From the NCBI GenBank assembly GCA_964634885.1, contig CAZWLN010000001.1, positions 135,932 to 199,931 of the forward strand: a stretch of 64,000 nucleotides of DNA, in the 5' to 3' direction. Positions 13,441 to 34,946 of the stretch are shown one piece after another (within the stretch, counting starts at the first letter, position 1; the number at the start of each line of letters is the position of its first letter). This stretch comes from an uncultured Hyphomicrobiales bacterium. Lineage in GTDB: Bacteria; Bacteroidota; Ignavibacteria; Kapaibacteriales; UBA2268. Both the position numbers and the translations under genes were made by a program. The notes below the pieces were generated by a model. The model saw only the letters and a list, made by a program, of their open reading frames with translations, made no database searches and was not told the origin of the DNA.

Positions 13441-14637
13441 ATGGAAAAGACACAGAATTACATCATTTTACAAAATGGTTATACTCTATCCTACGATGAA
13501 ACTCAATGTTATGAGAATGATAAAGAGTATCAAAGTAATGATAGTGATAAAAGAGAACCCAATGAGATAATTAAAGAATTAAAGCATAAATTCTATAATG
13601 CTTTTTTTAAGAAACATTTTAGAAATCTTATTTTCCTTACTGCAGCTGGAACATCTCTAAATAATGGAGAAAACAGTGGTAAAACAAGAGAAGACCTTTG
13701 GAATGAATGCAAAGATGAAATTTCTTCATTAGAAAAAAAGGATAAGAATGTATCATCAAAACCTTTTTTTATAGAGAAAGATATTGAGGGGTTATTATCA
13801 TATATCATTCTCTATGAAAAAATTCATGGAGATTTGATAATTAATAAAAATGAATTATTAAAAGCAAAAATAGAAAAAAAAATATCTGAAACATGTAAAT
13901 TGGTACTTTCTGAAACTGCACCTCATAAAGAATTTCTTAATAAAATTACAGCAAGGAAGCCAAGTGAGCCAAGGATAAAACTATTTACAACAAATTACGA
14001 TACATTATTTGAACAGGCTGCCAATGAAGCAGGTTTTATTATTATTGATGGTTTTTCTTATACACAGCCTAGAAGGTTTTCTGGAAGGTATTTTGATATT
14101 GATATTGTAAACCGAGAAAAAACAAGAATCAAACAGGAAGAAAGTTTTCTTTCTAAAGTATTCCATTTGTATAAATTACATGGTTCTGTAAATTGGACAA
14201 AAGAAAATAACACAATATTGTTAAAAGAAAACCCAACAAATCCACTAATCATCTATCCGGCATCTGAAAAATATGAAAGTTCATATGAACAACCCTACTT
14301 CGAGATGATGTCGAGATTTCAATCATCCCTCAGACAAGAAAATACATTATTAATAGTTATTGGTTTTGGTTTTAAAGACAAACATATTCAAAATGTAATT
14401 ATAGAAGCTGTGGAACAAAATCCAAGTTTTCAACTTGTGATAATAAATTATAGTAATAGTAATAGTATTCAGACAACCAATTTAGAATCATTTTTTCTTA
14501 ATGTAGATGCAATGAAAGTCAAAAGAAATGTGACCATAATATTTGATAACTTTAGTGGATTTGTCGATAATTATCCATCAAATCTAACATATATTGAACA
14601 ACAAAAGGATAACAATAATGAATCCATTCAGCCATAA
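13441..14637 (+). CDS. SIR2-like (SIR2_2 family) protein, probable NADase effector of a SIR2-HerA defence pair
   Basis: Motifs IFLTAAGTS, KLFTTNYDTLFEQA and LYKLHGSVNW are characteristic of defence-associated SIR2 domains. The gene is very AT-rich. Confidence 0.7.
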   Translation: MEKTQNYIILQNGYTLSYDETQCYENDKEYQSNDSDKREPNEIIKELKHKFYNAFFKKHFRNLIFLTAAGTSLNNGENSGKTREDLWNECKDEISSLEKKDKNVSSKPFFIEKDIEGLLSYIILYEKIHGDLIINKNELLKAKIEKKISETCKLVLSETAPHKEFLNKITARKPSEPRIKLFTTNYDTLFEQAANEAGFIIIDGFSYTQPRRFSGRYFDIDIVNREKTRIKQEESFLSKVFHLYKLHGSVNWTKENNTILLKENPTNPLIIYPASEKYESSYEQPYFEMMSRFQSSLRQENTLLIVIGFGFKDKHIQNVIIEAVEQNPSFQLVIINYSNSNSIQTTNLESFFLNVDAMKVKRNVTIIFDNFSGFVDNYPSNLTYIEQQKDNNNESIQP

Positions 14638-16375
14638 TTACTTTTTAGGATATATCAATGAAGTCACTCCACAGTATGTAAAAATACACTTCCCATCTTC
14701 AGGTTTATTAGACAAATTTTGTCATGAAGGTAATGATTACTCAGGTGGAAAAGTTGGAAATTTTGTAGTAATCGAAGGAGAAGAATATGGTTTTTTGGCT
14801 AGAATCTTAGAAATCAACCTTCCTGACAGTGAGAAAAAAGAAATAAATGAAAAAGCAATTCAACATGATGAAACAACATTTCACCCTTCTGGTAAAGCTG
14901 AACTTTTATTATGCTTCAGCGTATATGACCCCCAAAAAGCTATGAAAACAGTATCAAAGTATCCTACAATAGGCGCAAAAGTATATTCTTGTTCTGATGA
15001 ACAAATTGCTGAATATGTAAAACAATTTGGAAAAAATGAAAAAGAAATTGATAATATATACGGTGAGTTAGGAAAACTGACTTCTAACAATGCTATTTGT
15101 AGAATTTCATTAAATTCTCTATTCGGAAGACATTGTGCCGTTGTTGGAACAACTGGAGGAGGTAAAAGTTGGACAATCGCAAAATTAATTGAAGAGATTA
15201 CAAAAGTAACTGATAATAAAGTTATACTAATTGATGCAACAGGTGAGTATAGCAAATTAGAGACTAAGTCCTTAACTTTAGGTAAGGATACGTTTTTCCC
15301 ATATCAAAAATTAACCATACCAGACCTATTTTTTCTGTTACGTCCTACGGGTCAATCTCAGAGGCCAATATTATTAGAAGCTATAAGATCATTAAAAATG
15401 AGAAGGCTTTTAAATATTAATTTACAAGATGATGAATCAATACTAAAAAAAGCTAAACAACAAAAACAACGTATATTAAAATTTTATCAAGATAAAATAA
15501 AAGAAATTGAGGATAATTCTTGTAATTTTGACATTAACTTTCTTATTTCTCAAATTTTTGAGGAATGTGTCTATCAAAATGGTTTTAATGATACAAACTC
15601 TTGGGGTGATTATGATAGGAAAACATATGACTACCAGACAACACTTATAAATAGAATTACTGATCTTATTAATAATAAGATATTTAATAGTCTTTTAGGC
15701 TTTACTGAAATTCCTTGCAATAATACATCTATTATTGAACAGATAGAAGAATTTGTTTCAAATAAAAAAGGAAATGTAAAAGTATTGAGACTGAATTTTG
15801 AGAATATCCCCTCTTTATATTCAGTTAAAGAAATAATCTCAAATGCTATTGCATCGTTCCTTTTAAATGAAGCCAGGCAAACAAGATTTAAAGAGTCACC
15901 TATAATTTTAATATTAGATGAAGCTCATCAGTTTTTAAATAAAAGTGTGAAAGATGAGTTTTTTGATAGTAACACATTGGATTCTTTTGATTTAATAGCG
16001 AAAGAATGCCGCAAATATGGGCTTTTTTTATGTCTAGCTACTCAGATGCCCCGTGATATACCTATTGGGACTTTAAGCCAGATGGGTACATTTATTGTTC
16101 ACAGACTAATCAACGAACAAGATAAGAAGGCAATAGAAAATGCTGCTTCATCTGCTAATAGAAGTGCTTTGTCATTTTTACCAATTTTAGGAGAGGGTGA
16201 AGCATTACTTATTGGTGTTGATCTCCCAATGCCTTTACTAATAAAGATACATGAACCAACGATAAAACCAGAGTCCAATACACCGAGGTTAAAAAAAAGG
16301 GCTGATCAGGAAATGAATAACAATGTGGATCAAAAAATAAAAGAACTATTCGGGGCAGTACCTTTAAACATGTAA
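14594..16375 (+). CDS. herA: HerA-like FtsK/HerA-superfamily ATPase (SIR2-HerA partner)
   Basis: Walker A VVGTTGGGKSWT. Walker B ILILDEAHQF. About 590 aa. Overlaps the SIR2 gene (an alternative ATG at 14618 gives a 20-nt overlap). Confidence 0.75.
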   Translation: MNNKRITIMNPFSHNYFLGYINEVTPQYVKIHFPSSGLLDKFCHEGNDYSGGKVGNFVVIEGEEYGFLARILEINLPDSEKKEINEKAIQHDETTFHPSGKAELLLCFSVYDPQKAMKTVSKYPTIGAKVYSCSDEQIAEYVKQFGKNEKEIDNIYGELGKLTSNNAICRISLNSLFGRHCAVVGTTGGGKSWTIAKLIEEITKVTDNKVILIDATGEYSKLETKSLTLGKDTFFPYQKLTIPDLFFLLRPTGQSQRPILLEAIRSLKMRRLLNINLQDDESILKKAKQQKQRILKFYQDKIKEIEDNSCNFDINFLISQIFEECVYQNGFNDTNSWGDYDRKTYDYQTTLINRITDLINNKIFNSLLGFTEIPCNNTSIIEQIEEFVSNKKGNVKVLRLNFENIPSLYSVKEIISNAIASFLLNEARQTRFKESPIILILDEAHQFLNKSVKDEFFDSNTLDSFDLIAKECRKYGLFLCLATQMPRDIPIGTLSQMGTFIVHRLINEQDKKAIENAASSANRSALSFLPILGEGEALLIGVDLPMPLLIKIHEPTIKPESNTPRLKKRADQEMNNNVDQKIKELFGAVPLNM

Positions 16376-16672
16376 AAATCAATGAAAGATATTAAACAAA
16401 CATAATTAAATTGAATGTACAAGTATAGATATTGAAATCATATACTACTAAAGATATTCAATTCATTATATTATATATACAATTATTCTAATTGTTTGAA
16501 TTATTTATGTTTATTTCACGAAGTGGAATTTTCACTGTATATATTAATCAAATTTAATTCATATATAGTAGCGGTAGATTAAGGATAATTTCTTAATTTT
16601 AAGTTTTTGTTTTGATATTTTCCGGAAAATGTTTGCCGGAGTGATAAAGATTGTTGAATTGATGGGGTGATT

Positions 16673-18595
16673 ATGTCGGAATTCTTGTTTAAACCATTTG
16701 AAGAAATGACTGAGAAGGATTATGCCGAAGTGGGATTTATGTCGGGCCTGGAAATACACCAGCAGTTGTTTACGGACAGGAAATTGTTCTGCCGCTGCCC
16801 TGCCGGCCACTACAGCGACGAATACCATGCGGAAATCCTTCGCCACATGAGGCCTACGCTCTCCGAACTGGGTGAATATGACGGTACGGCCTTGATGGAA
16901 TTTAAAACCAAAAAAGATATTATTTACAGAATAAACAGGAATACTGTTTGCACTTACGAGATGGACGACACACCGCCTTTCGAGATGAACGAAGACGCTC
17001 TGGACATAGGCATAGAAGTGGGTATGCTCCTCAACGCCAAAATCGTCGATGAGATACACATCGCCCGTAAGCAATACCTCGACGGCAGCATCCCGACAGG
17101 CTTCCAGAGAACCGCCATCATCAGTGTCGGCGGCTGGATACCGTTCAAAGACAGGAAGATCAACATCATACAGATGTCCATCGAAGAAGACTCCTGCCGC
17201 GAATACAGCGACAAAGGGCACACAAGGATTTACCTGACAGACAGGCTCGGAATGCCGCTTATCGAAACGGTTACCCATCCTGACATGAAAACTCCCCAGG
17301 AAGTTGCAGAAGTCAACGACATACTACGCAGGCTGTCACGCAGCACAGGCAAAGTAAGAACCGGCGTGGGCGCCACCCGCCAGGACGTTAACGTAAGCGT
17401 CAGGGGAGGCACCAGGATTGAGATCAAAGGCGTGCCAAGCATAAAGAGAATACCTTTACTTACATACAACGAAGCAATGAGGCAGTGGAACCTCCTAAGG
17501 CTCAGAACCGAAATGCACAACAGGGGCATCACCGAAACCACCTTCGAACACAAAGTGGACGAAGTGACAAACCTCCTGAAGAAAACCCACTACCAGCCCA
17601 TCGCCGACGCCATAGGCCAGGGTAAGAGAGTACTTGCCGTAACACTGCGCAAATGCAAAGGCCTCCTGAGATGGCAAACACAGACAGACACTACCTTCGC
17701 TAAAGAGATATCCGACAGGGTACGCGTCATTGCCTGCCTCACCGACCTGCCAAACATTACCCACTCCGACTATCCCGGCGAAACAATTTCCTCGGCAGAC
17801 GGCAGCAGGATCAGGCAGAAAGTCGGAGCCGGCAAAGACGACGCTTTGGTACTCGTATGGGGCAGCGAACAGGATACGGAATGTGCAGCCCGCGAGATCG
17901 CCATCCGCGTAAAAGAAGCCACAATCGGCGTTCCTTCGGAAACACGCCAGGCTCTCTCAGACGGAACCAACGGATTCGAGAGGATTCTCCCAGGTCCCGA
18001 GAGGATGTATCCCGACACTGACCTTCCTCCGAAGAAGCTCTCAGACGAGCGTAAGGAAGCCATCAGGAAAGGCCTGCCCGAACAAATATGGAGAAGAGAA
18101 GGCTGGTACCGCGAGATCGGCGTACATGAGGATTTCATCAAAGAACTGGCAAAATCTAAGTTCGCCCCTACTTTCGAAAAATTGGTCAAGGACTGGGACA
18201 TCGACCCCAAACTGCTGTCCTTCGTCCTGATACCTTACATGAAACGACTTAAGAAAAAGAAGATTGATATTAATTTGTTGAGCGATGAGATCATACTTAA
18301 GATCTTCGACGCCTATCGCACCAAAAAAATCATCAGGGAAGGCATCTTCGTTGCAGTGGAGAAATCGCTGAACCAAGGCAAATTTACTAAGGAAGTTCTT
18401 CCTAAGCCCGTCAACCTCGACGATATTAAAGACTTCGCAAAGAAAAGCCTTACAGAAGTAAAGAAGATGACTCTTTACTATCCTGACAACCTTCAGAAGA
18501 TACTTATGGGTGTGGTAATGAACAAATACCGCGGGAAGATCAGCGGCGCAGAAACAATAAAATATGTCGAAGAATTAGCTCAACAGGAGGGATAA
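16673..18595 (+). CDS. gatE: Glutamyl-tRNA(Gln) amidotransferase subunit E (archaeal-type GatE)
   Basis: GLEIHQQL...KLFCRCP N-terminal GatB/E signature. About 640 aa, the length of GatE with its insertion domain rather than the ~480 aa of GatB. ATG at 16673 is preceded by a GGGGTG RBS (the track start at 16667 is GTG). Confidence 0.75.
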   Translation: MSEFLFKPFEEMTEKDYAEVGFMSGLEIHQQLFTDRKLFCRCPAGHYSDEYHAEILRHMRPTLSELGEYDGTALMEFKTKKDIIYRINRNTVCTYEMDDTPPFEMNEDALDIGIEVGMLLNAKIVDEIHIARKQYLDGSIPTGFQRTAIISVGGWIPFKDRKINIIQMSIEEDSCREYSDKGHTRIYLTDRLGMPLIETVTHPDMKTPQEVAEVNDILRRLSRSTGKVRTGVGATRQDVNVSVRGGTRIEIKGVPSIKRIPLLTYNEAMRQWNLLRLRTEMHNRGITETTFEHKVDEVTNLLKKTHYQPIADAIGQGKRVLAVTLRKCKGLLRWQTQTDTTFAKEISDRVRVIACLTDLPNITHSDYPGETISSADGSRIRQKVGAGKDDALVLVWGSEQDTECAAREIAIRVKEATIGVPSETRQALSDGTNGFERILPGPERMYPDTDLPPKKLSDERKEAIRKGLPEQIWRREGWYREIGVHEDFIKELAKSKFAPTFEKLVKDWDIDPKLLSFVLIPYMKRLKKKKIDINLLSDEIILKIFDAYRTKKIIREGIFVAVEKSLNQGKFTKEVLPKPVNLDDIKDFAKKSLTEVKKMTLYYPDNLQKILMGVVMNKYRGKISGAETIKYVEELAQQEG

Positions 18596-19983
18596 TGGCA
18601 CAGAACGAAGACTATAAAGGCTACCGCGGCCAAACGCTCGAGGTACTGCAAAAATACGAAGCAATGATCTGGAGCGATGTTGAAATTGAAACCACAGACG
18701 GCGACTTCATCGGGAAAATACTGCCCAGGTCTGAAAACGCCGACGATAAACATATTGTACTTAAGCTCATCACCGGTTACAACATCGGCATTGCCTCTGC
18801 CAAAGTACAAAACATGAAGATTCTTGGCCGCAAGATCATCAACTATAAAATTCCTGAAAAGGCTTTCCCGTACGATCCGAAGAAACCGAGAGTCAAGCTC
18901 TTCGGTACCGGCGGCACCATCGCCAGCCGTCTCGATTACCGTACCGGCGCAGTCATTCCGGCCTTCTCGCCAGGCGAACTGTACGGTTCGGTTCCTGAAC
19001 TGGCAGACGTCTGCAACTTGGAAACAGATAAGCTTTTCGGTGTTTTCAGCGAGAACATGGGCCCCGAGCAGTACAAGATCTGCGCTGAGAGAATCGGCGA
19101 AGAGATTGAAAAGGGTGTAAAAGGCATAGTCATCGGGCACGGTACCGACACAATGCACCACACTTCGGCCATCCTGTCGTTCATGGTACAGAATTCACCT
19201 GTACCGATTGTAATGGTAGGTTCACAGCGTTCCAGCGACAGGCCTTCGTCAGACGCAGCGCTTAACCTGATCCACAGCGTTAAGACAGCCGCCGAGAGCG
19301 ACATCGCCGAGGTAATGGTCTGTATGTTCGGCCCCACATCCGACACTTACGGCCTGCTTCACAGAGGCACACGCGTACGTAAGATGCACTCCAGTTACAG
19401 GTCAACCTTCAGGACCATCGGCGACATTCCCCTTGCCATGGTCAACAGGGACAAGATTACTCCGCTGCGCAGCGACTACAAAAAGAGAAGGAACGACAAG
19501 AACGTTACAATCAACACCGCCTTCGAAGAGATGGTAACAATACTCTATTACTATCCCAACATGAGGCCGGACCTGATCTACTCGCTCATCGACAACGGCT
19601 ACAAAGGCATAGTAATTGCCGGCACAGGCCTGGGCCATGTCAACAAACCGCTCTACCCGGCGCTGAAACGCTGCCAGGAAGCCGGCGTTGCCGTTTACAT
19701 GACCGTACAGACCCTCTGGGGCTATGTACAGATGTACGTTTACGAGACAGGCAGGGAGATGATGGACCTTGGAGTCATTCCTCTCGCCAACGTCCTTCCC
19801 GAAGTAGCTTATGTTAAACTCGGCTGGGCTATGGGACAAACCAACGACCTCGACGAAGTAAAGAAGATTATGCTCACTCCCGTTAACGGCGAGCTTACCG
19901 ACAGGGAACCCAGCAACGGCTACCTGATCTACCAGGGCGGCATTCCCGAGGTAGAAGAGTTCATCTCGCAGTACAGGAAGTAA
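18595..19983 (+). CDS. gatD: Glutamyl-tRNA(Gln) amidotransferase subunit D (archaeal-type GatD, asparaginase-like)
   Basis: N-terminal GatD-specific domain followed by an asparaginase fold. LFGTGGTIAS and GIVIGHGTDTM motifs. Start overlaps the gatE stop (TAATG). Confidence 0.75.
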   Translation: MAQNEDYKGYRGQTLEVLQKYEAMIWSDVEIETTDGDFIGKILPRSENADDKHIVLKLITGYNIGIASAKVQNMKILGRKIINYKIPEKAFPYDPKKPRVKLFGTGGTIASRLDYRTGAVIPAFSPGELYGSVPELADVCNLETDKLFGVFSENMGPEQYKICAERIGEEIEKGVKGIVIGHGTDTMHHTSAILSFMVQNSPVPIVMVGSQRSSDRPSSDAALNLIHSVKTAAESDIAEVMVCMFGPTSDTYGLLHRGTRVRKMHSSYRSTFRTIGDIPLAMVNRDKITPLRSDYKKRRNDKNVTINTAFEEMVTILYYYPNMRPDLIYSLIDNGYKGIVIAGTGLGHVNKPLYPALKRCQEAGVAVYMTVQTLWGYVQMYVYETGREMMDLGVIPLANVLPEVAYVKLGWAMGQTNDLDEVKKIMLTPVNGELTDREPSNGYLIYQGGIPEVEEFISQYRK

Positions 19984-20066: not shown

Positions 20067-21320
20067 CTATAATTTGAAGAATCCTTTTGTTGTTATTCCG
20101 TTTACGGTTTCCATAGATAAATAGAAACAACCGCTGTTAATGTTTTTTAATTGTATTGATACTCTATTGTAACCTGATGAAAAGTATTGCATAGGAGTTG
20201 AGAAGATTTCATTGCCAATTATATCATAGATATGGAACCTGGCATGGCTTTGCTCTGAAAGCTTGAGAGTAACTGTCAGTTCTTCATAGGCAGGATTGGG
20301 AGTTATCAATAGAAACGCATTGGACGCATAGTAGTCAAAGACCTCAGTAACACCGCTGTAATTGTAAATGCTGTTCAAATCGGATTTCAAATTTTGTTTA
20401 AAGTCATCGACGTCCACAACAGTCCCGTATCCCATGACATTATCAGGGTCAAAGACTTTACCGTCGATTACCGGGTACATATTGAGGTATCGGTTACCGT
20501 TTGAAAAAGGTGAAAACCAATAATAGTTAGTACTGTCGTCGCTGCAAATACCTGCATAACCTGTTAACATGATATATTCACGATTGCTAACTATCCATGG
20601 ATTGCCCGAAGAATCGACAGGAGGGCCCTTATCTTTTGTATAAACACAGGAAAACTGAAAACACGAACCGGGCAGAGCTTTTTGAGTCCTCGGATATGGG
20701 TCATATACATCATAGCTGCTGTCAATAAGATTGGGATCCTTGCATATCGGAATTACTTTCCCGGAAATTGTATCGATGATTGTACCGGTAATAATTAAAT
20801 AGGAAAAAACGGTTGTAGGGCTTGGAATTGTTTTAACTTCATTAACTTTTATATGGCTGATATTAATTGAATTAGCAAGGTTTATTAATTTGTACGGAGA
20901 GTCTAACAATTCGCGCATTTTCGTTGATGTGTAACCATATATATAGATTGGTGCAAGTTGATAGTTTGAATCCCGATATATCCAGTACAAACTTGAAGTA
21001 AGGCCATCATAATTATTTTGAATGGCTATATACTTCAGGTAGTATCTTAATGTGTCGTTGAGGTAGGTTTGTCTTGCAAGGAAATCATTCCATTCCTTTA
21101 AATTTTTTACGTTGCGGGACAGGCTGTCGAAATACATATATGATTCGATTACATTCTCAGGCATGTCCTTATTTACCGGAAAAGCGTCGAGAAGATTAAT
21201 TCTGTATGTTAACCCGTAATAGCTTTCCCAATTATCCGGCCAACAGGGAGGCTGCTGAGATTCAGCGCAGTAGATAGAAAAAAGGAATAATAATGTAAAT
21301 AAAAACGATTGCCTTTTCAT
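20067..21320 (-). CDS. Secreted hypothetical protein with T9SS C-terminal sorting domain
   Basis: Signal peptide MKRQSFLFTLLFLFSIYCAES. C-terminal LLITPNPAYEELTVTLKL...GCFYLSMETVNGITTKGFFKL sorting-domain pattern. Confidence 0.6.
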   Translation of the reverse strand: MKRQSFLFTLLFLFSIYCAESQQPPCWPDNWESYYGLTYRINLLDAFPVNKDMPENVIESYMYFDSLSRNVKNLKEWNDFLARQTYLNDTLRYYLKYIAIQNNYDGLTSSLYWIYRDSNYQLAPIYIYGYTSTKMRELLDSPYKLINLANSINISHIKVNEVKTIPSPTTVFSYLIITGTIIDTISGKVIPICKDPNLIDSSYDVYDPYPRTQKALPGSCFQFSCVYTKDKGPPVDSSGNPWIVSNREYIMLTGYAGICSDDSTNYYWFSPFSNGNRYLNMYPVIDGKVFDPDNVMGYGTVVDVDDFKQNLKSDLNSIYNYSGVTEVFDYYASNAFLLITPNPAYEELTVTLKLSEQSHARFHIYDIIGNEIFSTPMQYFSSGYNRVSIQLKNINSGCFYLSMETVNGITTKGFFKL

Positions 21321-22848: not shown

Positions 22849-23071
22849 TCTGATAAATCAATGTTCAATGCTGACATCACAAGTATCATGTAAAAAATTA
22901 TTTGATATTCCGGGAATAAACGGATAATTTTGTCGTATTATTAATATTAATTATGTGAATTGAAAATTTGAGAAATAATAAGTGTTTATCCGCATTAAGA
23001 ATGGTTGATTCGAGCCGATAACACACAATTAAACTGGATTGAAGAGTAAAAGGGGAACTGGCTTGAAAGTA

Positions 23072-24196
23072 ATGAATAGAATTATATGCGTTGTACTGGT
23101 ACTTCTAATAGCTATTACATATCTAAGCGAAGCAAAATACGGGAAGAATTGTGGTGGCTGTACAGGCTGCAGCAAAGGAAAAACACAACCTGTTGCCATG
23201 GTGCAGGATAAAGATGAATTTGAACCCGTTTCAAACCAGGACGAGTTTGAAGAAGTTACGGATACCAATGAATTCAGTGAGGTAATTGGCCAATCTGAAT
23301 TTGAACAGCCTGGCGCCATCGACACAACGGTTCCGGAAGAAGTTGGTATTAATTGGGATATGCTTTACTGGCCCCTCGGTGCCCTTGCTTTTACCATTCT
23401 TGCGGGTTTCCTTGTCAGGTTCAGGCCGACCAGGACAGTAAGGGGAGTGCTGCTTACCGGCTCAGTAATATTCCTCGGTTTCTACAACGGCGCCTGTCCA
23501 TGCCCTATCTCAAGCTTAAGCAATACCTTCATCGGCGCCATCGGCGGGGACGCCCCATGGGAGGCAATGGTCTGGTTCCTGGGATTGATACCGGTCACAT
23601 TTGTCTTCGGAAAAGTATGGTGCGGGTGGATCTGCCATCTGGGTGCGCTCCAGGAATTCATATACAGGTCGGACAAGCTGAAATTCCTCAGGGGCAATAA
23701 GGCACAGATTGTAATGAAAGTCATGAGATGGGCTTTGCTTGTTACCTTGATTGTACAGCTCATATATACACAGACTTACCTGTTCGACGAGATCGACCCC
23801 TTCAGGACAGCATTCAACCTTGGCTTCGGGACTAGCCTTACCGGCTGGATACTGTTGGGCCTCATGCTGCTTTCTTCGGTGTTCATTTACAGGCCTTTCT
23901 GCAAAGCTGCATGCCCCATAGGCCTGCTGCTCGGCTTTGTGGCAAAGATACCAGGTGCGTCCGTACTGGGAGCAAAAGAGATATGTACAGGCTGTGTAAC
24001 ATGCTCCAAAGCTTGTAAGTACGACGCCATTGTAAGGAAAGATAAATACAGTGTACTCGACAATACGGAGTGCATCCTCTGCGGCGAGTGTATCGACCAA
24101 TGCAGGCAAAACGGTATTTTATTCTATAGAAAAGGGAAAAAACACGGTGATAAAGTCATTCTTGAAGCCTGTTCTGTGGCTGCTGATAATAAGTAA
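23072..24196 (+). CDS. NapH/MauN-like membrane polyferredoxin (2x CX3CP + 2x 4Fe-4S ferredoxin motifs) with acidic periplasmic N-terminal segment
   Basis: TM-embedded WCGWICHLG and FCKAACPIGLL (CX3CP). C-terminal CTGCVTCSKACKYDA and CILCGECIDQCRQN. N-terminal CGGCTGCSKGK and an acidic DEFEPVSNQDEFEEVTDTNEFSEV stretch. The track start at 23039 is a TTG codon, so the true start is uncertain. Confidence 0.7.
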   Translation: MNRIICVVLVLLIAITYLSEAKYGKNCGGCTGCSKGKTQPVAMVQDKDEFEPVSNQDEFEEVTDTNEFSEVIGQSEFEQPGAIDTTVPEEVGINWDMLYWPLGALAFTILAGFLVRFRPTRTVRGVLLTGSVIFLGFYNGACPCPISSLSNTFIGAIGGDAPWEAMVWFLGLIPVTFVFGKVWCGWICHLGALQEFIYRSDKLKFLRGNKAQIVMKVMRWALLVTLIVQLIYTQTYLFDEIDPFRTAFNLGFGTSLTGWILLGLMLLSSVFIYRPFCKAACPIGLLLGFVAKIPGASVLGAKEICTGCVTCSKACKYDAIVRKDKYSVLDNTECILCGECIDQCRQNGILFYRKGKKHGDKVILEACSVAADNK

Positions 24197-25424
24197 CATT
24201 ACATTAAAGGCAGGAGTTGACTGCCCCTCGTCGGTACCGGCACACATGAAGCCAATATGGGACGGCAGCAACTTCTCATGGGCTGTTGAAGGTACATTCG
24301 GCATCGGTGTAATTAACGACGTTACCATCATGAACCAGATGCTTGTTTTGGGCGCTGCATACCAGTTCGGAAGCCCTCGGCACCGCATCTATTTCGAGGG
24401 GGTAGGAAAAGGCTGGTACAATTCCGAAGAAGGCGATAACCTGGACTATGACAGGAATATTGAAGTAATCGAACGCGACCACATCGGTGTCAGGGAACTG
24501 AACTACAAATACTCAGGCAAAGAAACCAGCCTGGCCGTGGGGTTACAGACAATGGGCGTCGGCGACTATTTCCTGATGGATGAACGCGCACTCGCTATTA
24601 ACTATGGCGATTACTTCGGCAAACTTAACGTAAACGCTTCTGTCGGCACCGTGATGAGGCATTTCGCACGGCAACGCAGCGTATGTGCCCTGAGACACCT
24701 GTACAACATCAGCGGCGGGGGTAAATACGGCCTTGTTGGAAAAGGGTTCGGGGAAACGAACTTCCTCGCTGCAACAGCCAAATGGCTTCCCAACCGCGAA
24801 GTAAAAAAAGACGGTGAAGAGTCGGCGGATGAATTTGAGGAAGTTACGGATGACAATTCAAAAAGCATATTCGAAGAAGCCGGCCTGATCTTTTACGAAG
24901 AATTCGGCAGGGGCTTTTCGGAGTATAAATACTATGCAGGAGCCTTTACTTCGGTAAACCTGCCTTTCGAATCGCTCCTCAGGTTCGAAACCGTTTACCA
25001 GTATATCCCGAACGAAAGGTGCTTCGCTTATTACGCCGACATATACAAAGGCATTACCTGGGACAACAACTCATCCACCGGGTTTGCCGTCGGCGGCCTC
25101 GGAAAATCATGCATTGACAACGGTGTATATTTCTATCCTTCATTCTCCAATTTGTATATTGGCGAGGTGATGAGGCTCGACGACAGGGAAATCCCGATCG
25201 TTTATGCCGCCGTTAAGCATAAATTCCCCTGGAAGAACAAACTCGTAATCAACTTCCAGGCAATGACACAGCTTGAAGATGTACATACAAGTGAAATAGA
25301 CCTGGAATTTGTTTGCAGGCTGTTCGGTTTCATCAAGTGGACAAATACCTTCAGCATGATAAATTCCAATGCTCTCGACGAAACCTATTATATGGCAAGA
25401 ACAGAAATAAGATTGGCTTATTAA
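24162..25424 (+). CDS. Predicted outer-membrane beta-barrel protein
   Basis: Start uncertain: TTG at 24162 gives MKPVLWLLIISNITLKA, and GTG at 24147 is also possible. The track ORF at 24051 overlaps the upstream gene. Alternating amphipathic beta-strand pattern. C-terminal ...TEIRLAY ends in an aromatic residue. Contains an acidic ADEFEEVTDDNSKSIFEE stretch that echoes the upstream protein. Confidence 0.55.
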   Translation: MKPVLWLLIISNITLKAGVDCPSSVPAHMKPIWDGSNFSWAVEGTFGIGVINDVTIMNQMLVLGAAYQFGSPRHRIYFEGVGKGWYNSEEGDNLDYDRNIEVIERDHIGVRELNYKYSGKETSLAVGLQTMGVGDYFLMDERALAINYGDYFGKLNVNASVGTVMRHFARQRSVCALRHLYNISGGGKYGLVGKGFGETNFLAATAKWLPNREVKKDGEESADEFEEVTDDNSKSIFEEAGLIFYEEFGRGFSEYKYYAGAFTSVNLPFESLLRFETVYQYIPNERCFAYYADIYKGITWDNNSSTGFAVGGLGKSCIDNGVYFYPSFSNLYIGEVMRLDDREIPIVYAAVKHKFPWKNKLVINFQAMTQLEDVHTSEIDLEFVCRLFGFIKWTNTFSMINSNALDETYYMARTEIRLAY

Positions 25425-25438
25425 ACTAAGGAAATAAT

Positions 25439-26677
25439 ATGGATGAAAGAATAAAAAGGCGGAATTTTCTGAAGGCAATATCCCTGGCTGCTGCCGGCAG
25501 TGCGGTATGTTCTGCATTCCCGTTACTGACCTCGTGCACAAAGAACGGCGTCAGCCCACTCGGCGTCTATTCCATCGACACTGAAAAATGCTTAGGGTGC
25601 GGCGACTGCCTCGGAGCATGTCTTTACAGTGCCATCGACCTTCCCGAATTATCCCGTTATACCATCGACGGGTCAAAGTGTGTCGGCTGCGGCAAATGTG
25701 TGGAAAAATGCAAATATGATGCATTTATCTTACCCGTCAAATCATCCTATACCATAAATGAAACGGCATGTATCGGCTGCGGCAAATGCCTTGAATACTG
25801 CAAGGAAAACGCCATCATCCTGCCGGAGAAATCAACCTATTCCATAGATACGGATACTTGCACCGAATGCGGTAAATGCGTACCAAAATGTCCGGAAGGA
25901 GCATTTGAGGTTAGCATAATAGACTACATCTTCAACAGCGACAATTGCGTCGGCTGCGGCAAATGCCTGACGGCCTGTGCAAACGAAGGTGTGGCAATTA
26001 CCTGGAAAAAAGAGTATTACACCGTTAAAAGGGACCAGTGCGGGCACTGCCATTCGCAATGCGCCACTGCATGTGAGTATGAAGCCATTACCATTTCAGG
26101 TAAAGCGACGATCGACAAGGACAAATGCCAGAGATGCGGCAAGTGTATTATTGCCTGCCCTAACAGCGCAATCAATAAAGCCGTCGTTCAGAAAGACGAC
26201 ACTAAATGTAACCACTGCGGAAAGTGCTACCGTTATTGTGCTTACGACGCCGTTACACAATCCAAGCCGTCGGACTATCACGCTCCCAGGGTAAACCAGG
26301 AACTATGCACTGCCTGTGGCCAGTGTATGCTGCCTGCCTCCCTGGCTTGTGTCGATTACGAGGCTGTTACGAGGGTATTAAAGAAAGCAGCCATCGACCT
26401 GAATAAATGTACGGCATGTGGTGACTGCAATGTTCCTGCCGCTCCGGCATGCCCCGAAAGCTATGCTGCTATTGTAGGGAACCTGAAAACAGCTGAAGTA
26501 AACCAGTCGAAGTGCATACGCTGCAATGAGTGCCTCAGCGTTTCAGATCCAGCATGCCCCGTGAAATTCAATGCCATTACTCTTACTTCAAAACAGGCAG
26601 AGATAAATGACGCTAAATGCCGTGCATGTGGGGACTGTCTGCCGGAATGTAAATATGACGCTATTTTCAGGGGGTAA
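25439..26677 (+). CDS. Tat-exported polyferredoxin with ~12 tandem 4Fe-4S cluster-binding motifs
   Basis: Twin-arginine signal RRNFLKAISLAAAGSA. Twelve CxxCxxC(x)nC(P) units counted by eye (CLGCGDCLGAC, CVGCGKCVEKC, CIGCGKCLEYC, CTECGKCVPKC, CVGCGKCLTAC, CGHCHSQCATAC, CQRCGKCIIAC, CNHCGKCYRYC, CTACGQC...AC, CTACGDC...ACP, CIRCNEC...ACP, CRACGDCLPEC). Confidence 0.8.
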   Translation: MDERIKRRNFLKAISLAAAGSAVCSAFPLLTSCTKNGVSPLGVYSIDTEKCLGCGDCLGACLYSAIDLPELSRYTIDGSKCVGCGKCVEKCKYDAFILPVKSSYTINETACIGCGKCLEYCKENAIILPEKSTYSIDTDTCTECGKCVPKCPEGAFEVSIIDYIFNSDNCVGCGKCLTACANEGVAITWKKEYYTVKRDQCGHCHSQCATACEYEAITISGKATIDKDKCQRCGKCIIACPNSAINKAVVQKDDTKCNHCGKCYRYCAYDAVTQSKPSDYHAPRVNQELCTACGQCMLPASLACVDYEAVTRVLKKAAIDLNKCTACGDCNVPAAPACPESYAAIVGNLKTAEVNQSKCIRCNECLSVSDPACPVKFNAITLTSKQAEINDAKCRACGDCLPECKYDAIFRG

Positions 26678-26680
26678 AGG

Positions 26681-26884
26681 TCAGATACGCCTTCTTTCCA
26701 TCAGCTTCCTGAAATGCTCGAAAGACCTGTCGTAAGTCTTTTCCGCATCAGCGGGGAAGAAGCATGCCGGTAACTCCCGTGCCCGTTTGTGGTAATTGAC
26801 ACAGTCGCAGCAACGGCCCTTCCTGGGACATGGTTCGTAGGTACAGTTGCAGTTTTGCCTGTTCTTTTCGTCGTTACATTCCAT
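26681..26884 (-). CDS. Small Cys-rich protein ([21 protein letters not shown] family-like), function unknown
   Basis: 67 aa with 8 Cys in a conserved-looking arrangement. Convergent with the polyferredoxin gene. Confidence 0.45.
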
Positions 26885-29672: not shown

Positions 29673-30386
29673 CTATGTATGATCCGCAACGGCCAGCGTA
29701 GCTGCATCCACACGCCGGGCGCCGCTTTCCAGCAGCGCTTCTGCACAGGCGTTGAGTGTAGAGCCGGTTGTTAATACATCGTCAACCAGCAGGAAAGACT
29801 TGCCCTGTGTACCTGCACCCTTTACGACTTCAAATACCCGGCTGACATTCTTACGTCGGGCTTCTTTACTCAGTTTTGTCTGCGTAGTGGTGTATTTCTT
29901 TCTGCGGATAATTCTAATATCGACCGGAATACCTGTTTCGCGGCTAATGCCTCTTGAGATCATCTCGGCCTGGTTGTAGCCGCGTTCCCGTTTGCGGGCG
30001 GCATGGATGGGTACAGGCAATATGGCGTCGTAGCCGAAGCCGGGAATGTACTTCAGCAACCTGCCGAATTCACCGCCAAGCTCGATGCCGATTTTCCACA
30101 TGCTGTGGTATTTCAGCTCGCGAATGAGGCAGGCATAGACATTTTCATCATTATATTTAAAAAATGAGTATATGCCGCTCAGGTAGAAGTAATCCCTGTT
30201 CTCCTGCATGGATTCGATCCTGTTAAGAAGGATGTCCCCGGGAGGCGCCAGAGGTATATTGTCAAGGCAGGTACGACAGACGAAATCGCCTTCGCATGGG
30301 CCGGACAGTCTGTCGTTGCAAATCAGGCACACACGGGGAGCTATGAATTGCAGGAGATTGTCGGCAATATTCTTAAATAATTTCAA
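29673..30386 (-). CDS. comF: ComF-family phosphoribosyltransferase (competence protein ComFC-like)
   Basis: N-terminal Cys pairs (CLICNDR...CRTC). PRTase motif FLLVDDVLTTGSTL. Confidence 0.75.
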   Translation of the reverse strand: MKLFKNIADNLLQFIAPRVCLICNDRLSGPCEGDFVCRTCLDNIPLAPPGDILLNRIESMQENRDYFYLSGIYSFFKYNDENVYACLIRELKYHSMWKIGIELGGEFGRLLKYIPGFGYDAILPVPIHAARKRERGYNQAEMISRGISRETGIPVDIRIIRRKKYTTTQTKLSKEARRKNVSRVFEVVKGAGTQGKSFLLVDDVLTTGSTLNACAEALLESGARRVDAATLAVADHT

Positions 30387-30862
30387 ATATTCGTTTGTGA
30401 TTCTTTCAAAGATTCTTTAACTAAGAATTTTTCAAATGAAAGTGTATTGTTTGGGAAGATGATGAGCCAGACAGCAGCTACGAGCATCCCGAAGTCCTCA
30501 AACAATTTGGGCCAGCCGACCTCTTCAGGATTAGCCGTAGAACAGCCGCAGTTGATGCTGAATCCCCTGATCATTGCCGAAGAGATTGCGATGATGAAGA
30601 CGACAAGCATGAAACCGATGACGGCGGCATTAGCCCTGATCTTTATGCCTGCAATCAACATGATGCCGCATATCAGTTCGAGCCAGGGGAGGATTAATGC
30701 AAATATGTTGACAATGAAATCCGGCAGGATGCGGTAATTTAAAATCTCCCTGGCAAATTCTCCGGGGTCGGCGATTTTACCGATAGACCAAAAAACGAAT
30801 ATCGCGCCCAATACAACTCTGACGACTAAAGTTAAATATGGATTATCAAGAATCTTTTTCAT
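30383..30862 (-). CDS. DoxX/MauE-family membrane protein
   Basis: Four hydrophobic helices. NCGCS motif. 4-nt overlap with comF. Confidence 0.6.
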   Translation of the reverse strand: MKKILDNPYLTLVVRVVLGAIFVFWSIGKIADPGEFAREILNYRILPDFIVNIFALILPWLELICGIMLIAGIKIRANAAVIGFMLVVFIIAISSAMIRGFSINCGCSTANPEEVGWPKLFEDFGMLVAAVWLIIFPNNTLSFEKFLVKESLKESQTNI

Positions 30863-32565: not shown

Positions 32566-33906
32566 ATGGCGGATGCTGAAATACTATCACGCATACAGTT
32601 TGCAGTAACGATCGCTTTCCATTACATCTATCCACCGTTAAGTATCGGGCTTGGCGTCATTCTCGTCGCAATGGAAGGACTGTACATTAAAACGAAGAAT
32701 AAGCTCTTCGAAGACATGACAAAATTCTGGGTCAAGGTTTTTGCAATTACTTTTGCCATTGGCGTTGCTACAGGCATTGTGATGGAATTCCAGTTCGGTA
32801 CGAACTGGGCCACCTATTCTCGTTTCGTCGGAGACGTGTTCGGATCGCCTCTGGCAGCAGAAGGGATATTTGCCTTCTTCCTCGAATCCGGTTTCCTGGC
32901 AATACTCGTGTTTGGGTGGAAGAAGGTCAGCCCGAAGATGCATTTTACTTCGACCATTCTCGTTGCCCTGGGAGCTCATCTCAGTGCAGTGTGGATAATC
33001 ATTGCAAATTCATGGCAGCAGACACCTGCCGGATTCCATGTCGTAGGCGAAGGCCTGAAAGCCAGGGCCGAAATGACGGATTTCTGGGAAGTGGTGTTCA
33101 ATCCTTCATCGATGGACAGGCTCTCGCACACACTTTCCGGTGCCTGGCTTGCCGGCGCCTTCCTTGTGCTGAGCATCGGTGCTTATTACCTCATTAAAAA
33201 CAAGTATATCGATTTTGCAAAATCATCTATGAAAATAGCTGTCTGCCTGGCAATTTTTGCCTCGCTCTTCCAGCTTTTTACCGGGCATAATTCAGCTCAG
33301 GGTGTAGCCGAGAACCAACCCTCCAAGCTTGCGGCTTTTGAAGGGCATTATACGACCGGGCCCGCAGACCTCTACCTTTTCGGATGGGTTAACCATGAGA
33401 ATAAAGAAGTTACAGGGGTAAAAATACCGGGAATGCTCTCCTGGATGGTATATTTCGACTCAGAAAAGCCGGTTACAGGTCTTGACAGGATACCACCGGA
33501 CGAGCAGCCTCCCGTAAACATGGTCTTCCAGGCCTATCATATCATGGTTGCCATCGGCATGGCTTTGATTGCACTAAGCCTGGGTGCAGCCTTTTTCTGG
33601 TGGCGCCGGACACTTTGGAACAAACGCTGGTTCCTGAAGATACTGTTGTTCGCGGTGATACTGCCCCAGGCAGCGAACCAGATCGGATGGATTGCCGCGG
33701 AAGTCGGAAGGCAGCCGTGGATTGTCTATGGTTACCTCAAGACCAGAGACGGCCTGTCGAAGTCTGTCGATCCATCGCAGGTAATGTTTTCGCTCATTTT
33801 CTTCTCGTTGATATATATACTGCTTTTCGGTTTGTTCATGTACCTGCTTAACAGAAAGGTCAAGCACGGGCCTGAGCTTACGGAAGCTGAAAATAATGCT
33901 CTTTAA
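32566..33906 (+). CDS. cydA: Cytochrome bd ubiquinol oxidase subunit I
   Basis: [25 protein letters not shown]-terminus. Q-loop. Multi-TM protein. Confidence 0.9.
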
Positions 33907-33929
33907 TTGAAAATATCCGGAGTAAATAT

Positions 33930-34946
33930 ATGGATTTAAATACGATATGGTTCATCCTGATCGGGGTACTCCTGACAGGCTATGCAATCCTCGACGGATT
34001 CGACCTCGGCGTCGGTTCGCTCCATCTGCTGGCAAAAAACGACCTGGAGCGCAGAATACTAATTAACTCGATCGGCCCTGTCTGGGACGGCAACGAAGTG
34101 TGGCTCGTTACCGGTGGAGGCGCCTTGTTCGCAGCGTTCCCGCATGTATATGCAACAGTATTCTCAGGCTTCTATACCGCATTCATGCTACTGCTGTTCA
34201 TGATCATTTTCAGGGCAGTATCAATCGAATTCAGGAGTAAAGTTGAGACTGCCGGATGGCGTAATACCTGGGACCGGGCTTTCAGTGTTTCAAGCTTTGT
34301 AATTGCCCTGTTGATGGGTGTTGCTTTGGGTAACATCGTCATCGGCGTCCCGCTCGATGCGAATTTTGAGCCACTGTTCGGACTGCTCGACCTGCTCAAT
34401 CCTTATTCAATTCTGATCGGCCTTACAACAGTAGTCATGTTTATGATGCACGGCTCCCTGTTCCTGACGGTAAAGACCGAGGGTGAACTTAACGAGAAAG
34501 CTAAACGCTGGGCAAAAAACAGTTACTTCTATTTTGTTGCCTGTTACCTCGCCACTACAATATTGACCGTGATATATGTCCCACACATGACAGCGCCTTT
34601 CAACAGCAATCCAGTACTCTACGCCATCCCGCTCATCAACCTGCTTGCTATTGCAAATATTGCGAGGGAGCATTTCAGGGGAAAACCATTAAGGGCTTTC
34701 ATATCCTCGGGTGTGAATATTGCCTGCCTCATGGCCCTGTTTGCCGTCGGCCTGTTCCCGGACATCGTCATCTCCAGTCCTGCACCGGAAAACAGCCTTA
34801 ACGTTTACAATGCTGCTTCTTCACCCAGGACTCTGGAGACGATGCTGATAATAGCCCTGATAGGGATGCCGCTGGTCATCGGTTACACCATTTTCATTTA
34901 CCGCATCTTCCGCGGCAAGGTGAAGATCGAAGAGACAAGCTATTAG
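33930..34946 (+). CDS. cydB: Cytochrome bd ubiquinol oxidase subunit II
   Basis: MDLNTIWFILIGVLLTGYAILDGFDLGVG is a typical CydB N-terminus. Immediately downstream of cydA. Confidence 0.9.
   Translation: MDLNTIWFILIGVLLTGYAILDGFDLGVGSLHLLAKNDLERRILINSIGPVWDGNEVWLVTGGGALFAAFPHVYATVFSGFYTAFMLLLFMIIFRAVSIEFRSKVETAGWRNTWDRAFSVSSFVIALLMGVALGNIVIGVPLDANFEPLFGLLDLLNPYSILIGLTTVVMFMMHGSLFLTVKTEGELNEKAKRWAKNSYFYFVACYLATTILTVIYVPHMTAPFNSNPVLYAIPLINLLAIANIAREHFRGKPLRAFISSGVNIACLMALFAVGLFPDIVISSPAPENSLNVYNAASSPRTLETMLIIALIGMPLVIGYTIFIYRIFRGKVKIEETSY

Follow-up and report, generated by a model that had tools for sequence, protein, structure and literature searches.

Can a bacterium with two membranes carry electrons through its envelope on iron-sulfur clusters instead of hemes? 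Periplasmic and extracellular electron transfer in diderms is usually ascribed to multiheme cytochromes or flavins, and a locus in the 64-kb stretch of contig CAZWLN010000001.1 analyzed here (the window) raises the question of another route. Three consecutive genes in this locus encode an inner-membrane iron-sulfur protein related to NapH (g1), a predicted outer-membrane β-barrel (g2), and an exported polyferredoxin (g3), and a first-pass annotation of the DNA had interpreted them as an electron conduit across the entire envelope. All functional statements on this cassette are computational. We tentatively favor, while stopping short of calling it probable, a NapGH-like cell-envelope redox cassette whose electron path would stop in the periplasm, with the barrel serving for the passage of a small solute. 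An iron-sulfur wire through the outer membrane is unlikely, because the barrel is narrow, with 18 strands compared with 26 in MtrB, and has no cofactor motif.

Three genes for an envelope cassette

Three same-strand genes and one convergent open reading frame (ORF) are present where the first-pass annotation had placed them (23039..24196, 24051..25424, and 25439..26677 on the + strand; 26681..26884 on the − strand). From reading the DNA, the likely true starts are ATG 23072 for g1 and GTG 24147 for g2. TTG 23039 is an alternative start of g1 that would lengthen the protein by 11 residues, and GTG 24147 gives g2 a normal signal peptide and an overlap of 50 nucleotides (nt) with g1. An independent Joint Genome Institute (JGI) gene call on the same contig gives products of 374, 425, and 412 amino acids (aa), with an identical start for g1. 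The three genes are co-transcribed. A promoter and terminator scan of the region returned sites no more frequently than in shuffled sequence, and no Rfam family (riboswitch or other RNA) was found upstream, either in the window region or in any of eight related loci.

g1 (23072..24196, + strand, 374 aa) is assigned to the inner-membrane iron-sulfur proteins of the NapH superfamily (PF12801) based on Pfam, NCBIfam, an alignment with NapH, and hydropathy. It matches PF12801 (Fer4_5) in two stretches with 51.3 bits against a cut-off of 22. The NapH/MauN type previously given to it stands in part: NapH/MauN models are its best NCBIfam matches, but the scores lie far under the curated cut-offs (TIGR02163, 79.5 versus 213.05; NF007013, 71.5 versus 234), and the last 220 residues share 24% identity with NapH of Escherichia coli (E 3e-13). 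On homology, g1 counts as a divergent PF12801/NapH superfamily protein and not as a NapH. Instead of the two CX3CP motifs reported for it, g1 has one CX3CP (CKAACP, 23900-23917, + strand), one CX3CH (CGWICH, 23621-23638, + strand) and, in addition, a CPCP at the periplasmic end of the second transmembrane (TM) helix, TM2 (23495..23506, + strand; alignment of 30 g1 homologues). CGWICH and CKAACP, which together span 23621..23917 (+ strand), are the NapH-type membrane-proximal cysteine motifs, as read from the sequence and supported by the PF12801 match, and align with the two CX3CP motifs of E. coli NapH. The ferredoxin motifs likewise reported for g1 lie in a C-terminal 2x[4Fe-4S] domain (23984..24103, + strand) that is matched by Fer4_9 and Fer4_7 in Pfam and has the ferredoxin domains of RnfB as its best matches in the Protein Data Bank (PDB).

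The hydropathy of g1 indicates a signal peptide and five TM helices, with the N terminus outside and the C terminus inside, and the charge distribution agrees with the positive-inside rule for this topology. The ferredoxin domain is predicted to be cytoplasmic, because in the g1-g2 fusions described below the export signal of the barrel comes after the ferredoxin domain. At the other end of the protein, the charge count and the alignment of homologues support a predicted periplasmic tail (residues 23-96; 23138..23359, + strand). Its description as a cysteine-bearing acidic segment proved right: the tail has 17 D/E versus 4 K/R and three cysteines, all in CGGCTGC (23150-23170, + strand). The acidic tail is also present in relatives in the g1 alignment. 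CGGCTGC in the window copy is located at the mature N terminus and not just before TM1, and only locus L026 is similar.

g2 (24147..25424, + strand, 425 aa) starts at the GTG with a signal peptide of ~23 residues. The middle ORF had been read as an outer-membrane β-barrel, a point on which the conduit proposal was said to stand or fall, and AlphaFold2 with a 16-sequence alignment indeed gave a barrel of 18 β-strands (predicted local distance difference test [pLDDT] 75.6; predicted template modeling score [pTM] 0.73). Relatives of g2 have a C-terminal ..R.AF signal; the window copy ends in Y. Only two cysteines are conserved among the 16 sequences, from which the heme motif CXXCH and the flavinylation motif [ST]GA[ST] are both absent. 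Neither Pfam nor NCBIfam has a match to the window g2; none of the 16 family members matches a porin or other barrel family of Pfam even at E 5, and the only Pfam matches among them are two unrelated single-member ones. By standard barrel geometry, 18 strands correspond to a C-alpha diameter of ~35 Å and a lumen of ~20-25 Å before loops fold in, which would be too narrow for a 2x[4Fe-4S] ferredoxin domain. Based on the AlphaFold2 model, g2 is a predicted member of a narrow class of solute channels with the OprD/AlgE fold; g2 itself belongs to no annotated family.

g3 (25439..26677, + strand, 412 aa) was identified as a polyferredoxin from its sequence, its matches to Fer4 families in Pfam, and its best PDB match. 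The N terminus (25439-25537, + strand) consists of KRRNFLK, a hydrophobic stretch, and a lipobox, LLTSC, the latter absent from the first-pass annotation. All orthologues inspected carry the arginine pair and a cysteine lipobox, and g3 is predicted to be exported by twin-arginine translocation (Tat) and lipid anchored. The earlier count of ~12 ferredoxin-type clusters in a twin-arginine protein was accurate: there are 12 Cys4 motifs (25589-26650, + strand) with a spacing of 27-35 residues, and the mature protein has 48 cysteines. By contrast, the idea that g3 is an enlarged NapG has to be given up. BLASTP likeness to E. coli NapG is motif-level only (E 3e-5, 25% identity), NapG is not among the 25 best NCBIfam matches of g3, and the best PDB match is MvhB (9sw6_G, E 2.1e-19); g3 instead resembles MvhB as a string of clostridial-type ferredoxin units. 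The sole CXXCH of g3 (CGHCH) sits within a ferredoxin motif and is not kept in orthologues.

Orthologues of g3 have 8 motifs (~276 aa, the commonest size), 10 (~340 aa), or 12, and they gain or lose single-motif units of ~30 residues at differing places. The window copy is among the longest seen, 12 motifs being found otherwise only in L005 and P0154/L052. The g3 proteins are acidic, and the window copy, with an isoelectric point (pI) of 6.2, is the least acidic of the polyferredoxins measured. Most orthologues have an (S/D)-P-(F/L) motif at +5 to +9 after the lipobox cysteine (25553-25561 in the window), as in CTKNGVSPL and CSKNGVSPF, which may serve in sorting or docking.

A conserved core with the polyferredoxin as an accessory

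How widely is this arrangement shared? A word-indexed homologue search with g2 returned 16 proteins, and a profile search of 1.84 billion representative proteins returned 175 clusters, 116 of them at E <1e-30. Among the 150 of these 175 clusters that were listed, no full-length member was worse than ~1e-13, and there was no tail toward other barrel families. Scanning one genome per species gave 37 loci, and with further loci from metagenomes there were more than 40 in all; gene calling in these loci was crude and was cross-checked by tblastn and precomputed gene calls. The 37 loci are from Bacteroidota (mostly metagenome-assembled genomes [MAGs] of Bacteroidales), Kapaibacterium, Melioribacteraceae, Acidobacteriota, Neomarinimicrobiota, Fibrobacteres, Myxococcota, and Opitutaceae. 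The closest relative of the window cassette, with 44-49% identity, is in a Kapaibacterium MAG.

Recurrence across phyla, together with g1/g2 overlaps and fusions elsewhere, bears out that the genes of the window belong to a conserved unit. The trio proposed as that unit is, however, not its constant part. Clustering of the ORFs of all loci, checked by tblastn, gave as the constant unit a small secreted immunoglobulin (Ig)-like protein followed by g1 and g2, and the polyferredoxin is present in only about half of the cassettes. The small protein has ~105 mature residues with a C-x-K-[DE]-G-G turn, a Sec-type signal, and three cysteines and one histidine that do not vary among 45 sequences; it is mostly basic (pI ~9), and its family comprises 230 clusters at 90% identity. 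We found no credible match to it in Pfam (one member, E 0.01) or NCBIfam (14 members, E 1). It is encoded in 39 of the 40 loci with upstream DNA available and also in L052. Searches of the whole window by tblastn and with a hidden Markov model (HMM) did not find it, making the window the only evaluable locus without it. That the CGGCTGC tail of the window g1 stands in for the small protein is speculation. Altogether, three unannotated protein families co-occur across phyla, i.e., the barrel, the small Cys/His protein, and a subfamily of PF12801 proteins with an acidic tail rich in DEF motifs. We have not found this cassette architecture described in the literature.

The overlap of g1 and g2 is 35-56 nt in the other loci inspected, close to the 50 nt in the window. 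In three representative clusters among the matches listed (P0237, P0238, and P0243), the two genes are fused in frame and encode proteins of 856-904 aa. In the two fusions read (P0237 and P0243), the signal peptide of the barrel comes directly after the g1 ferredoxin domain as an internal hydrophobic segment, which implies, for these predicted proteins, internal signal cleavage or an unusual route of biogenesis. Overlap and fusion together are strong evidence that g1 and g2 are a functional pair.

g3 follows the barrel gene in 18 loci and is absent in 20 with downstream DNA; five of the g3-positive loci came from searches biased toward g3. The g1 proteins of g3-bearing loci have the CPC in TM2 and usually a few extra cysteines just before TM1, and Bacteroidales loci without g3 have GG-PG at the CPC position. 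CPC and g3 occur together in 16 loci and are both missing in 13; three loci have CPC without g3 and one, a degenerate locus, has g3 without CPC. Two loci (L009 and L030) in these counts were corrected by eye from the g1 alignment, and the counts are not independent events because they come largely from two clades. Every g3 orthologue looked up sits in the same cassette, within unrelated housekeeping surroundings. tatA is directly downstream in L052, and tatA/B is nearby in L048.

Some loci depart from the common layout. L009 (8226-11033) encodes a ~475-aa polyferredoxin with ~13 motifs and then a second PF12801-like membrane protein (455 aa). Two Neomarinimicrobiota loci (L034, 6046-6345; L031, contig start) have an extra ~95-aa ferredoxin with a Tat signal upstream of the small protein. 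In L040 (8001-9676), the barrel gene is fragmented and the polyferredoxin truncated; this locus is probably a decaying copy of the cassette.

Beside the more than 40 cassettes, we saw no molybdopterin enzyme, NapA, TorA, DMSO-type or other reductase, or cytochrome, and neither an ApbE nor an FMN-binding domain was seen in the cassette neighborhoods. Thus, the lack of NapA or another obvious terminal reductase, first remarked on for the window operon, extends to the whole set, which speaks against an ordinary quinol-to-reductase chain. Among recurrent but non-universal neighbors are a TetR regulator and a secreted cupin; in Bacteroidales, a set of MMPL, LolA-like, and DUF1302 genes; extracytoplasmic function (ECF) sigma and anti-sigma factors with LTXXQ/Metal_resist; DUF2202; and FecR with a TonB-dependent receptor. 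An ArsP_1 permease is beside the cassette in one locus.

An acidic element shared by the two membrane proteins

The barrel and the inner-membrane protein had been noticed to share an acidic DEF motif and a stretch of identical DNA; both are real, and the motif turns out to be family-wide in the two membrane proteins. The 12-nt sequence GAAGTTACGGAT occurs exactly twice in 64 kb, at 23252 in g1 and at 24840 in g2. By chance, 0.01 matches are expected, and at least two copies were obtained in 0 of 100 shuffles. In g1, the copy (23252-23263) is part of four DEF-type acidic repeats in the tail. In g2, it lies (24840-24851) in a disordered acidic loop comprising residues 214-241 (24786..24869, + strand), for which the family consensus is DEFxxFDEFS.

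Across 32 loci, the first 110 residues of g1 contain [DE][DE]F at a density of 30.7 per 1000, a 30-fold enrichment over the 1.0 of other ORFs; at least two copies are present in 28 of the 32 tails and none in the rest of g1. In g2, the frequency is 6.2 per 1000 (6-fold enriched), with the copies concentrated in one loop. This loop connects strands 205-213 and 242-253 of the AlphaFold2 model, and pLDDT is <50 at residues 221-237. Because of strand parity with a periplasmic N terminus, we infer that the loop, which joins strands 8 and 9, is a turn on the periplasmic side. On the modeled topology, the tail of g1 and the turn of g2 would both face the periplasm.

A redox path that would end in the periplasm

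Our preferred reading is a four-part envelope redox cassette, of which the window holds three parts. The two [4Fe-4S] clusters and the CX3C(P/H) motifs of g1 would face the cytoplasm, and g1 would shuttle electrons, presumably outward, between a cytoplasmic or quinone pool on one side and the periplasmic face on the other. g3 would acquire its fold and its clusters in the cytoplasm before Tat export and lipid anchoring. In presumed contact with g1, this chain of clusters (12 in the window, 8-10 in most relatives) would then continue the electron path in the periplasm, much as NapG does for NapH. g2, made in step with g1, would serve as a cofactor-free, 18-stranded channel of the OprD/AlgE type that lets a small solute, substrate or product, cross the outer membrane, such that the redox reaction would be periplasmic, with no hopping of electrons across the outer membrane along protein cofactors. 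The DEF repeats of the g1 tail and the g2 turn may be a common element by which a periplasmic partner docks or is tethered. We suggest that this partner is usually the small, mostly basic Ig-like protein with three cysteines and one histidine that the window lacks; on predicted charge, the basic small protein, with the polyferredoxins being acidic, would suit the DEF segments as a partner. As to the substrate, a thiophilic metal or chalcogen species is weakly suggested by the conserved Cys/His sites and by neighbors of the metal-stress type.

Several observations weigh against this reading. No catalytic subunit is encoded, and the end point of the electrons is thus unexplained. About half of the cassettes lack the polyferredoxin and have a g1 without periplasmic cysteines, and the core function may therefore not be periplasmic electron delivery. 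Clostridial-type clusters are usually of low potential, a poor fit with a quinol donor. As the only evaluable locus without the small protein, the window may hold an impaired cassette or one that functions unlike its relatives. The periplasmic placing of the DEF loop depends on parity in a model with pLDDT 75.6. Finally, MvhB, the closest structural relative of g3, is branched and routes its main path through just 4 of 12 clusters (PMC13580544).

Among the alternatives, the one that survives best is that the cassette serves the trafficking or detoxification of a thiophilic metal or chalcogen and is not a respiratory chain, which we regard as unlikely though deserving of real weight. The barrel would admit the species; the small Cys/His protein, or here the CGGCTGC tail, would carry it across the periplasm; g1 would be a dedicated reductase or translocator like CcoG or FtrD; and the polyferredoxin would be an optional extra electron input. 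Such a scheme makes sense of a constant core of small protein, g1, and g2 without polyferredoxin, and of conserved cysteines in each core part (three with a histidine in the small protein, two in the barrel, and the CPC in a TM helix of g1). The small protein cannot carry a pre-assembled iron-sulfur cluster because its signal is of the Sec type, and the acidic repeats could bind cations. The ECF sigma and anti-sigma factors, LTXXQ/Metal_resist, DUF2202, FecR with its TonB-dependent receptor, and ArsP_1 all fit metal stress; however, these neighbors vary and none is universal, and without an Rfam match there is no metal riboswitch in the window region or the eight related loci. Moreover, an accessory with 8-12 clusters is much redox machinery for trafficking, the fold of the small protein is uninformative, and the window lacks the very protein proposed as the carrier.

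A bolder version of the electron path applies to the cassettes that have the polyferredoxin. In these, the chain of 8-12 clusters would wire g1 to the periplasmic mouth of the pore and there reduce a soluble or mineral-derived acceptor, making the cassette a cytochrome-free, long-distance electron route in the envelope. We consider this rather improbable. If true, it would be an iron-sulfur counterpart of the porin-cytochrome and Cyc2 systems and invisible to screens that count multiheme cytochromes.

We think it very improbable that the cassette is the trans-envelope conduit originally proposed, in which electrons run from g1 along the polyferredoxin to the barrel, or through it, and on to an acceptor outside the cell (e.g., a mineral or an electrode), even if a weaker form is included in which, like Cyc2 in reverse, docked polyferredoxin reduces a soluble metal ion at the periplasmic mouth of the pore. 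In favor of a conduit, the combination of inner-membrane, periplasmic, and outer-membrane gene products is conserved, no terminal reductase gene was seen beside the cassettes, g3 is predicted to be lipid anchored and has up to 12 clusters, and its modular variation (8, 10, or 12 motifs) is like that of an adjustable wire. The long acidic periplasmic turn of the barrel could dock a partner, and small barrels of 16-20 strands have been proposed to take part in metal redox reactions in Cyc2 and in OmbB of porin-cytochrome complexes (PCC). However, a 2x[4Fe-4S] domain would not fit in the lumen of ~20-25 Å, cofactor motifs are missing from the barrel, and none of the genes encodes an extracellular redox protein. 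With no cofactor motif and no redox-active product for the outer face, electrons would have to cross the bilayer without relay centers, and cofactor-free tunneling across the bilayer is not feasible beyond ~14 Å. The polyferredoxin, the supposed wire, is missing from about half of the cassettes, and g3 has no recognizable Bacteroidota surface-export signal after the lipid cysteine, judged against what we take to be that motif. To the reverse flow of electrons, i.e., uptake from a periplasmic or imported reduced donor via the polyferredoxin and g1 to a low-potential ferredoxin pool in the cytoplasm, we likewise give very little credence: g3 is built entirely of clostridial-type units, typically of low potential, the cytoplasmic ferredoxin domain of g1 is closest to RnfB, and the literature on PF12801 allows a reversed direction (PMC8238504), but the sequences themselves do not determine a direction, genes for an oxidase or dehydrogenase partner are lacking, and uphill transfer needs energy coupling, for which no component is visible.

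A periplasmic, MvhB-like polyferredoxin with 8-12 clusters would show that long heme-free paths exist outside the cytoplasm in anaerobic bacteria of the Fibrobacteres-Chlorobi-Bacteroidetes (FCB) group and others, and genome-based predictions of electroactivity and metal redox would need to count such paths. The carriers of the cassette are bacteria from digesters, sediments, and soils. Whatever the substrate, an inner-membrane protein and an outer-membrane protein share an acidic motif that may act as a tether. The cassette is small and self-contained and, therefore, a tractable experimental target.

Surroundings of the cassette in the window

The small Cys-rich protein reported to be encoded convergently just downstream is present (26681-26884, − strand); it is a member of DUF6485 (E 4e-11) without a signal peptide. 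It clustered with no ORF among the 41 related loci compared and is probably unrelated to the cassette. A MauE/DoxX-family membrane protein of 159 aa is encoded 3.5 kb downstream of the cassette (30383-30862, − strand). MauE is named for the methylamine utilization cluster, which also holds the NapGH-like MauMN; no link between the MauE/DoxX gene and the cassette was seen in other loci.

Further genes concern the organism. cydAB, for subunits I and II of cytochrome bd oxidase (32566-34946, + strand), indicate a quinol pool and some oxygen exposure. Two proteins (20067-21320, − strand; 35495-37687, + strand) have the C-terminal sorting domain of the type IX secretion system (T9SS; Por_Secre_tail), which places the organism in the Bacteroidota/FCB group. 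In this bacterium with T9SS sorting domains, a GatE-like protein (GatB_N, 642 aa) and an adjacent GatD (GatD_N and asparaginase domains, 462 aa) are encoded at 16667-19983 (+ strand). The GatE/GatD pair is the archaeal-type Glu-tRNA(Gln) amidotransferase; it is also found a few kb from the cassette in an "uncultured Cytophagia" locus (L003, 12904-16216). A gene for a SIR2_2-domain protein (398 aa) followed by an overlapping gene for a HerA-type ATPase (593 aa) at 13441-16375 (+ strand) looks like an anti-phage defense pair (SIR2-HerA); it is located in the stretch of the window with the lowest GC content (0.288 at 14-16 kb).

Comparison with known systems

The nearest relatives in organization are NapGH, NosGH, and MauMN. 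In the quinol dehydrogenase formed by NapG and NapH, the clusters of NapH lie toward the cytoplasm, and NapG is a four-cluster protein that Tat exports to the periplasm (PMC5449189). Like these systems, the cassette has a PF12801 inner-membrane protein with CX3C motifs close to the membrane and a 2x[4Fe-4S] domain, here predicted to be cytoplasmic, and pairs it with a protein that carries a Tat signal and multiple [4Fe-4S] clusters. However, NapH and MauN have four TM helices and two CX3CP motifs, whereas g1 has five helices after a signal peptide, the extra one being N-terminal, and the acidic DEF tail; compared with NapH, one of its motifs is CX3CH and CPCP is added, while the ferredoxin domain is kept. 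g3 has 12 clusters rather than the four of NapG, is a predicted lipoprotein, and resembles NapG at the motif level only. The cassette also lacks napA, nosZ, and mau genes, and it adds an outer-membrane barrel and a small Ig-like protein.

In length and motif number, g3 is identical to MvhB of class I methanogens (412 aa and 12 motifs, as six tandem 2x[4Fe-4S] units). Polyferredoxins of the MvhB type act as an intramolecular cluster wire or hub (PMC13580544). MvhB is an archaeal, cytoplasmic protein without a signal peptide that is encoded in the mvhDGAB operon and bridges HdrA to FmdF; in contrast, g3 is bacterial, has a Tat signal and a lipobox, varies in unit number among its orthologues (8, 10, and 12), and has no mvh, hdr, or fmd genes nearby. 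As judged from these features, g3 would be an MvhB-like polyferredoxin in a compartment and a domain of life for which we have not found this type described in the literature.

With MtrCAB, the PCC of Geobacter, and Cyc2, the cassette has in common that a barrel gene is co-encoded with a periplasmic multi-center redox protein and that no reductase gene is nearby. The likeness ends there: multiheme cytochromes and an extracellular partner are lacking, and about half of the family does without the redox protein. MtrB has 26 strands and sheathes MtrA, whereas g2 has 18. Thus, the analogy with MtrCAB and PCC that inspired the first interpretation fails on geometry and on conservation, in addition to the missing cofactor motif and extracellular partner. 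A better match for g2, based on its model, is the 18-stranded monomeric fold of OprD/Occ and AlgE; however, its identity to these channels is 6-13%, it has no Pfam family match even at E 5, and it differs in its conserved cysteine pair, its long acidic periplasmic turn, and its constant pairing with a PF12801 protein, to which it is sometimes fused.

Two further groups of systems offer parallels. CcoG, a cupric reductase, and FtrD of FtrABCD are PF12801 membrane iron-sulfur proteins in metal handling. By description only, they resemble g1 in working with periplasmic metal-binding proteins and not with a respiratory reductase; however, no Ftr1, P19, or cbb3 genes were seen near the cassettes, and the partners are unrelated. 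"NapH-like" PF12801 proteins have been regarded as modular transmembrane electron-transfer devices, the direction of which could be reversed (PMC8238504). The flavinylated NapH-like systems and the DsbD-DUF3570-DUF4266 systems follow the same logic of a membrane electron-transfer protein with extracytosolic partners, which in the DsbD system are a small secreted cysteine protein and a ~420-aa protein (PMC8238504). Different from the DUF3570 system, g2 has no [ST]GA[ST] in 16 sequences and no DUF3570 match. Altogether, rather than with the porin-cytochrome family, the cassette is best filed as a variant of the NapGH-type membrane/periplasm iron-sulfur module, with three new parts and a new tether motif.

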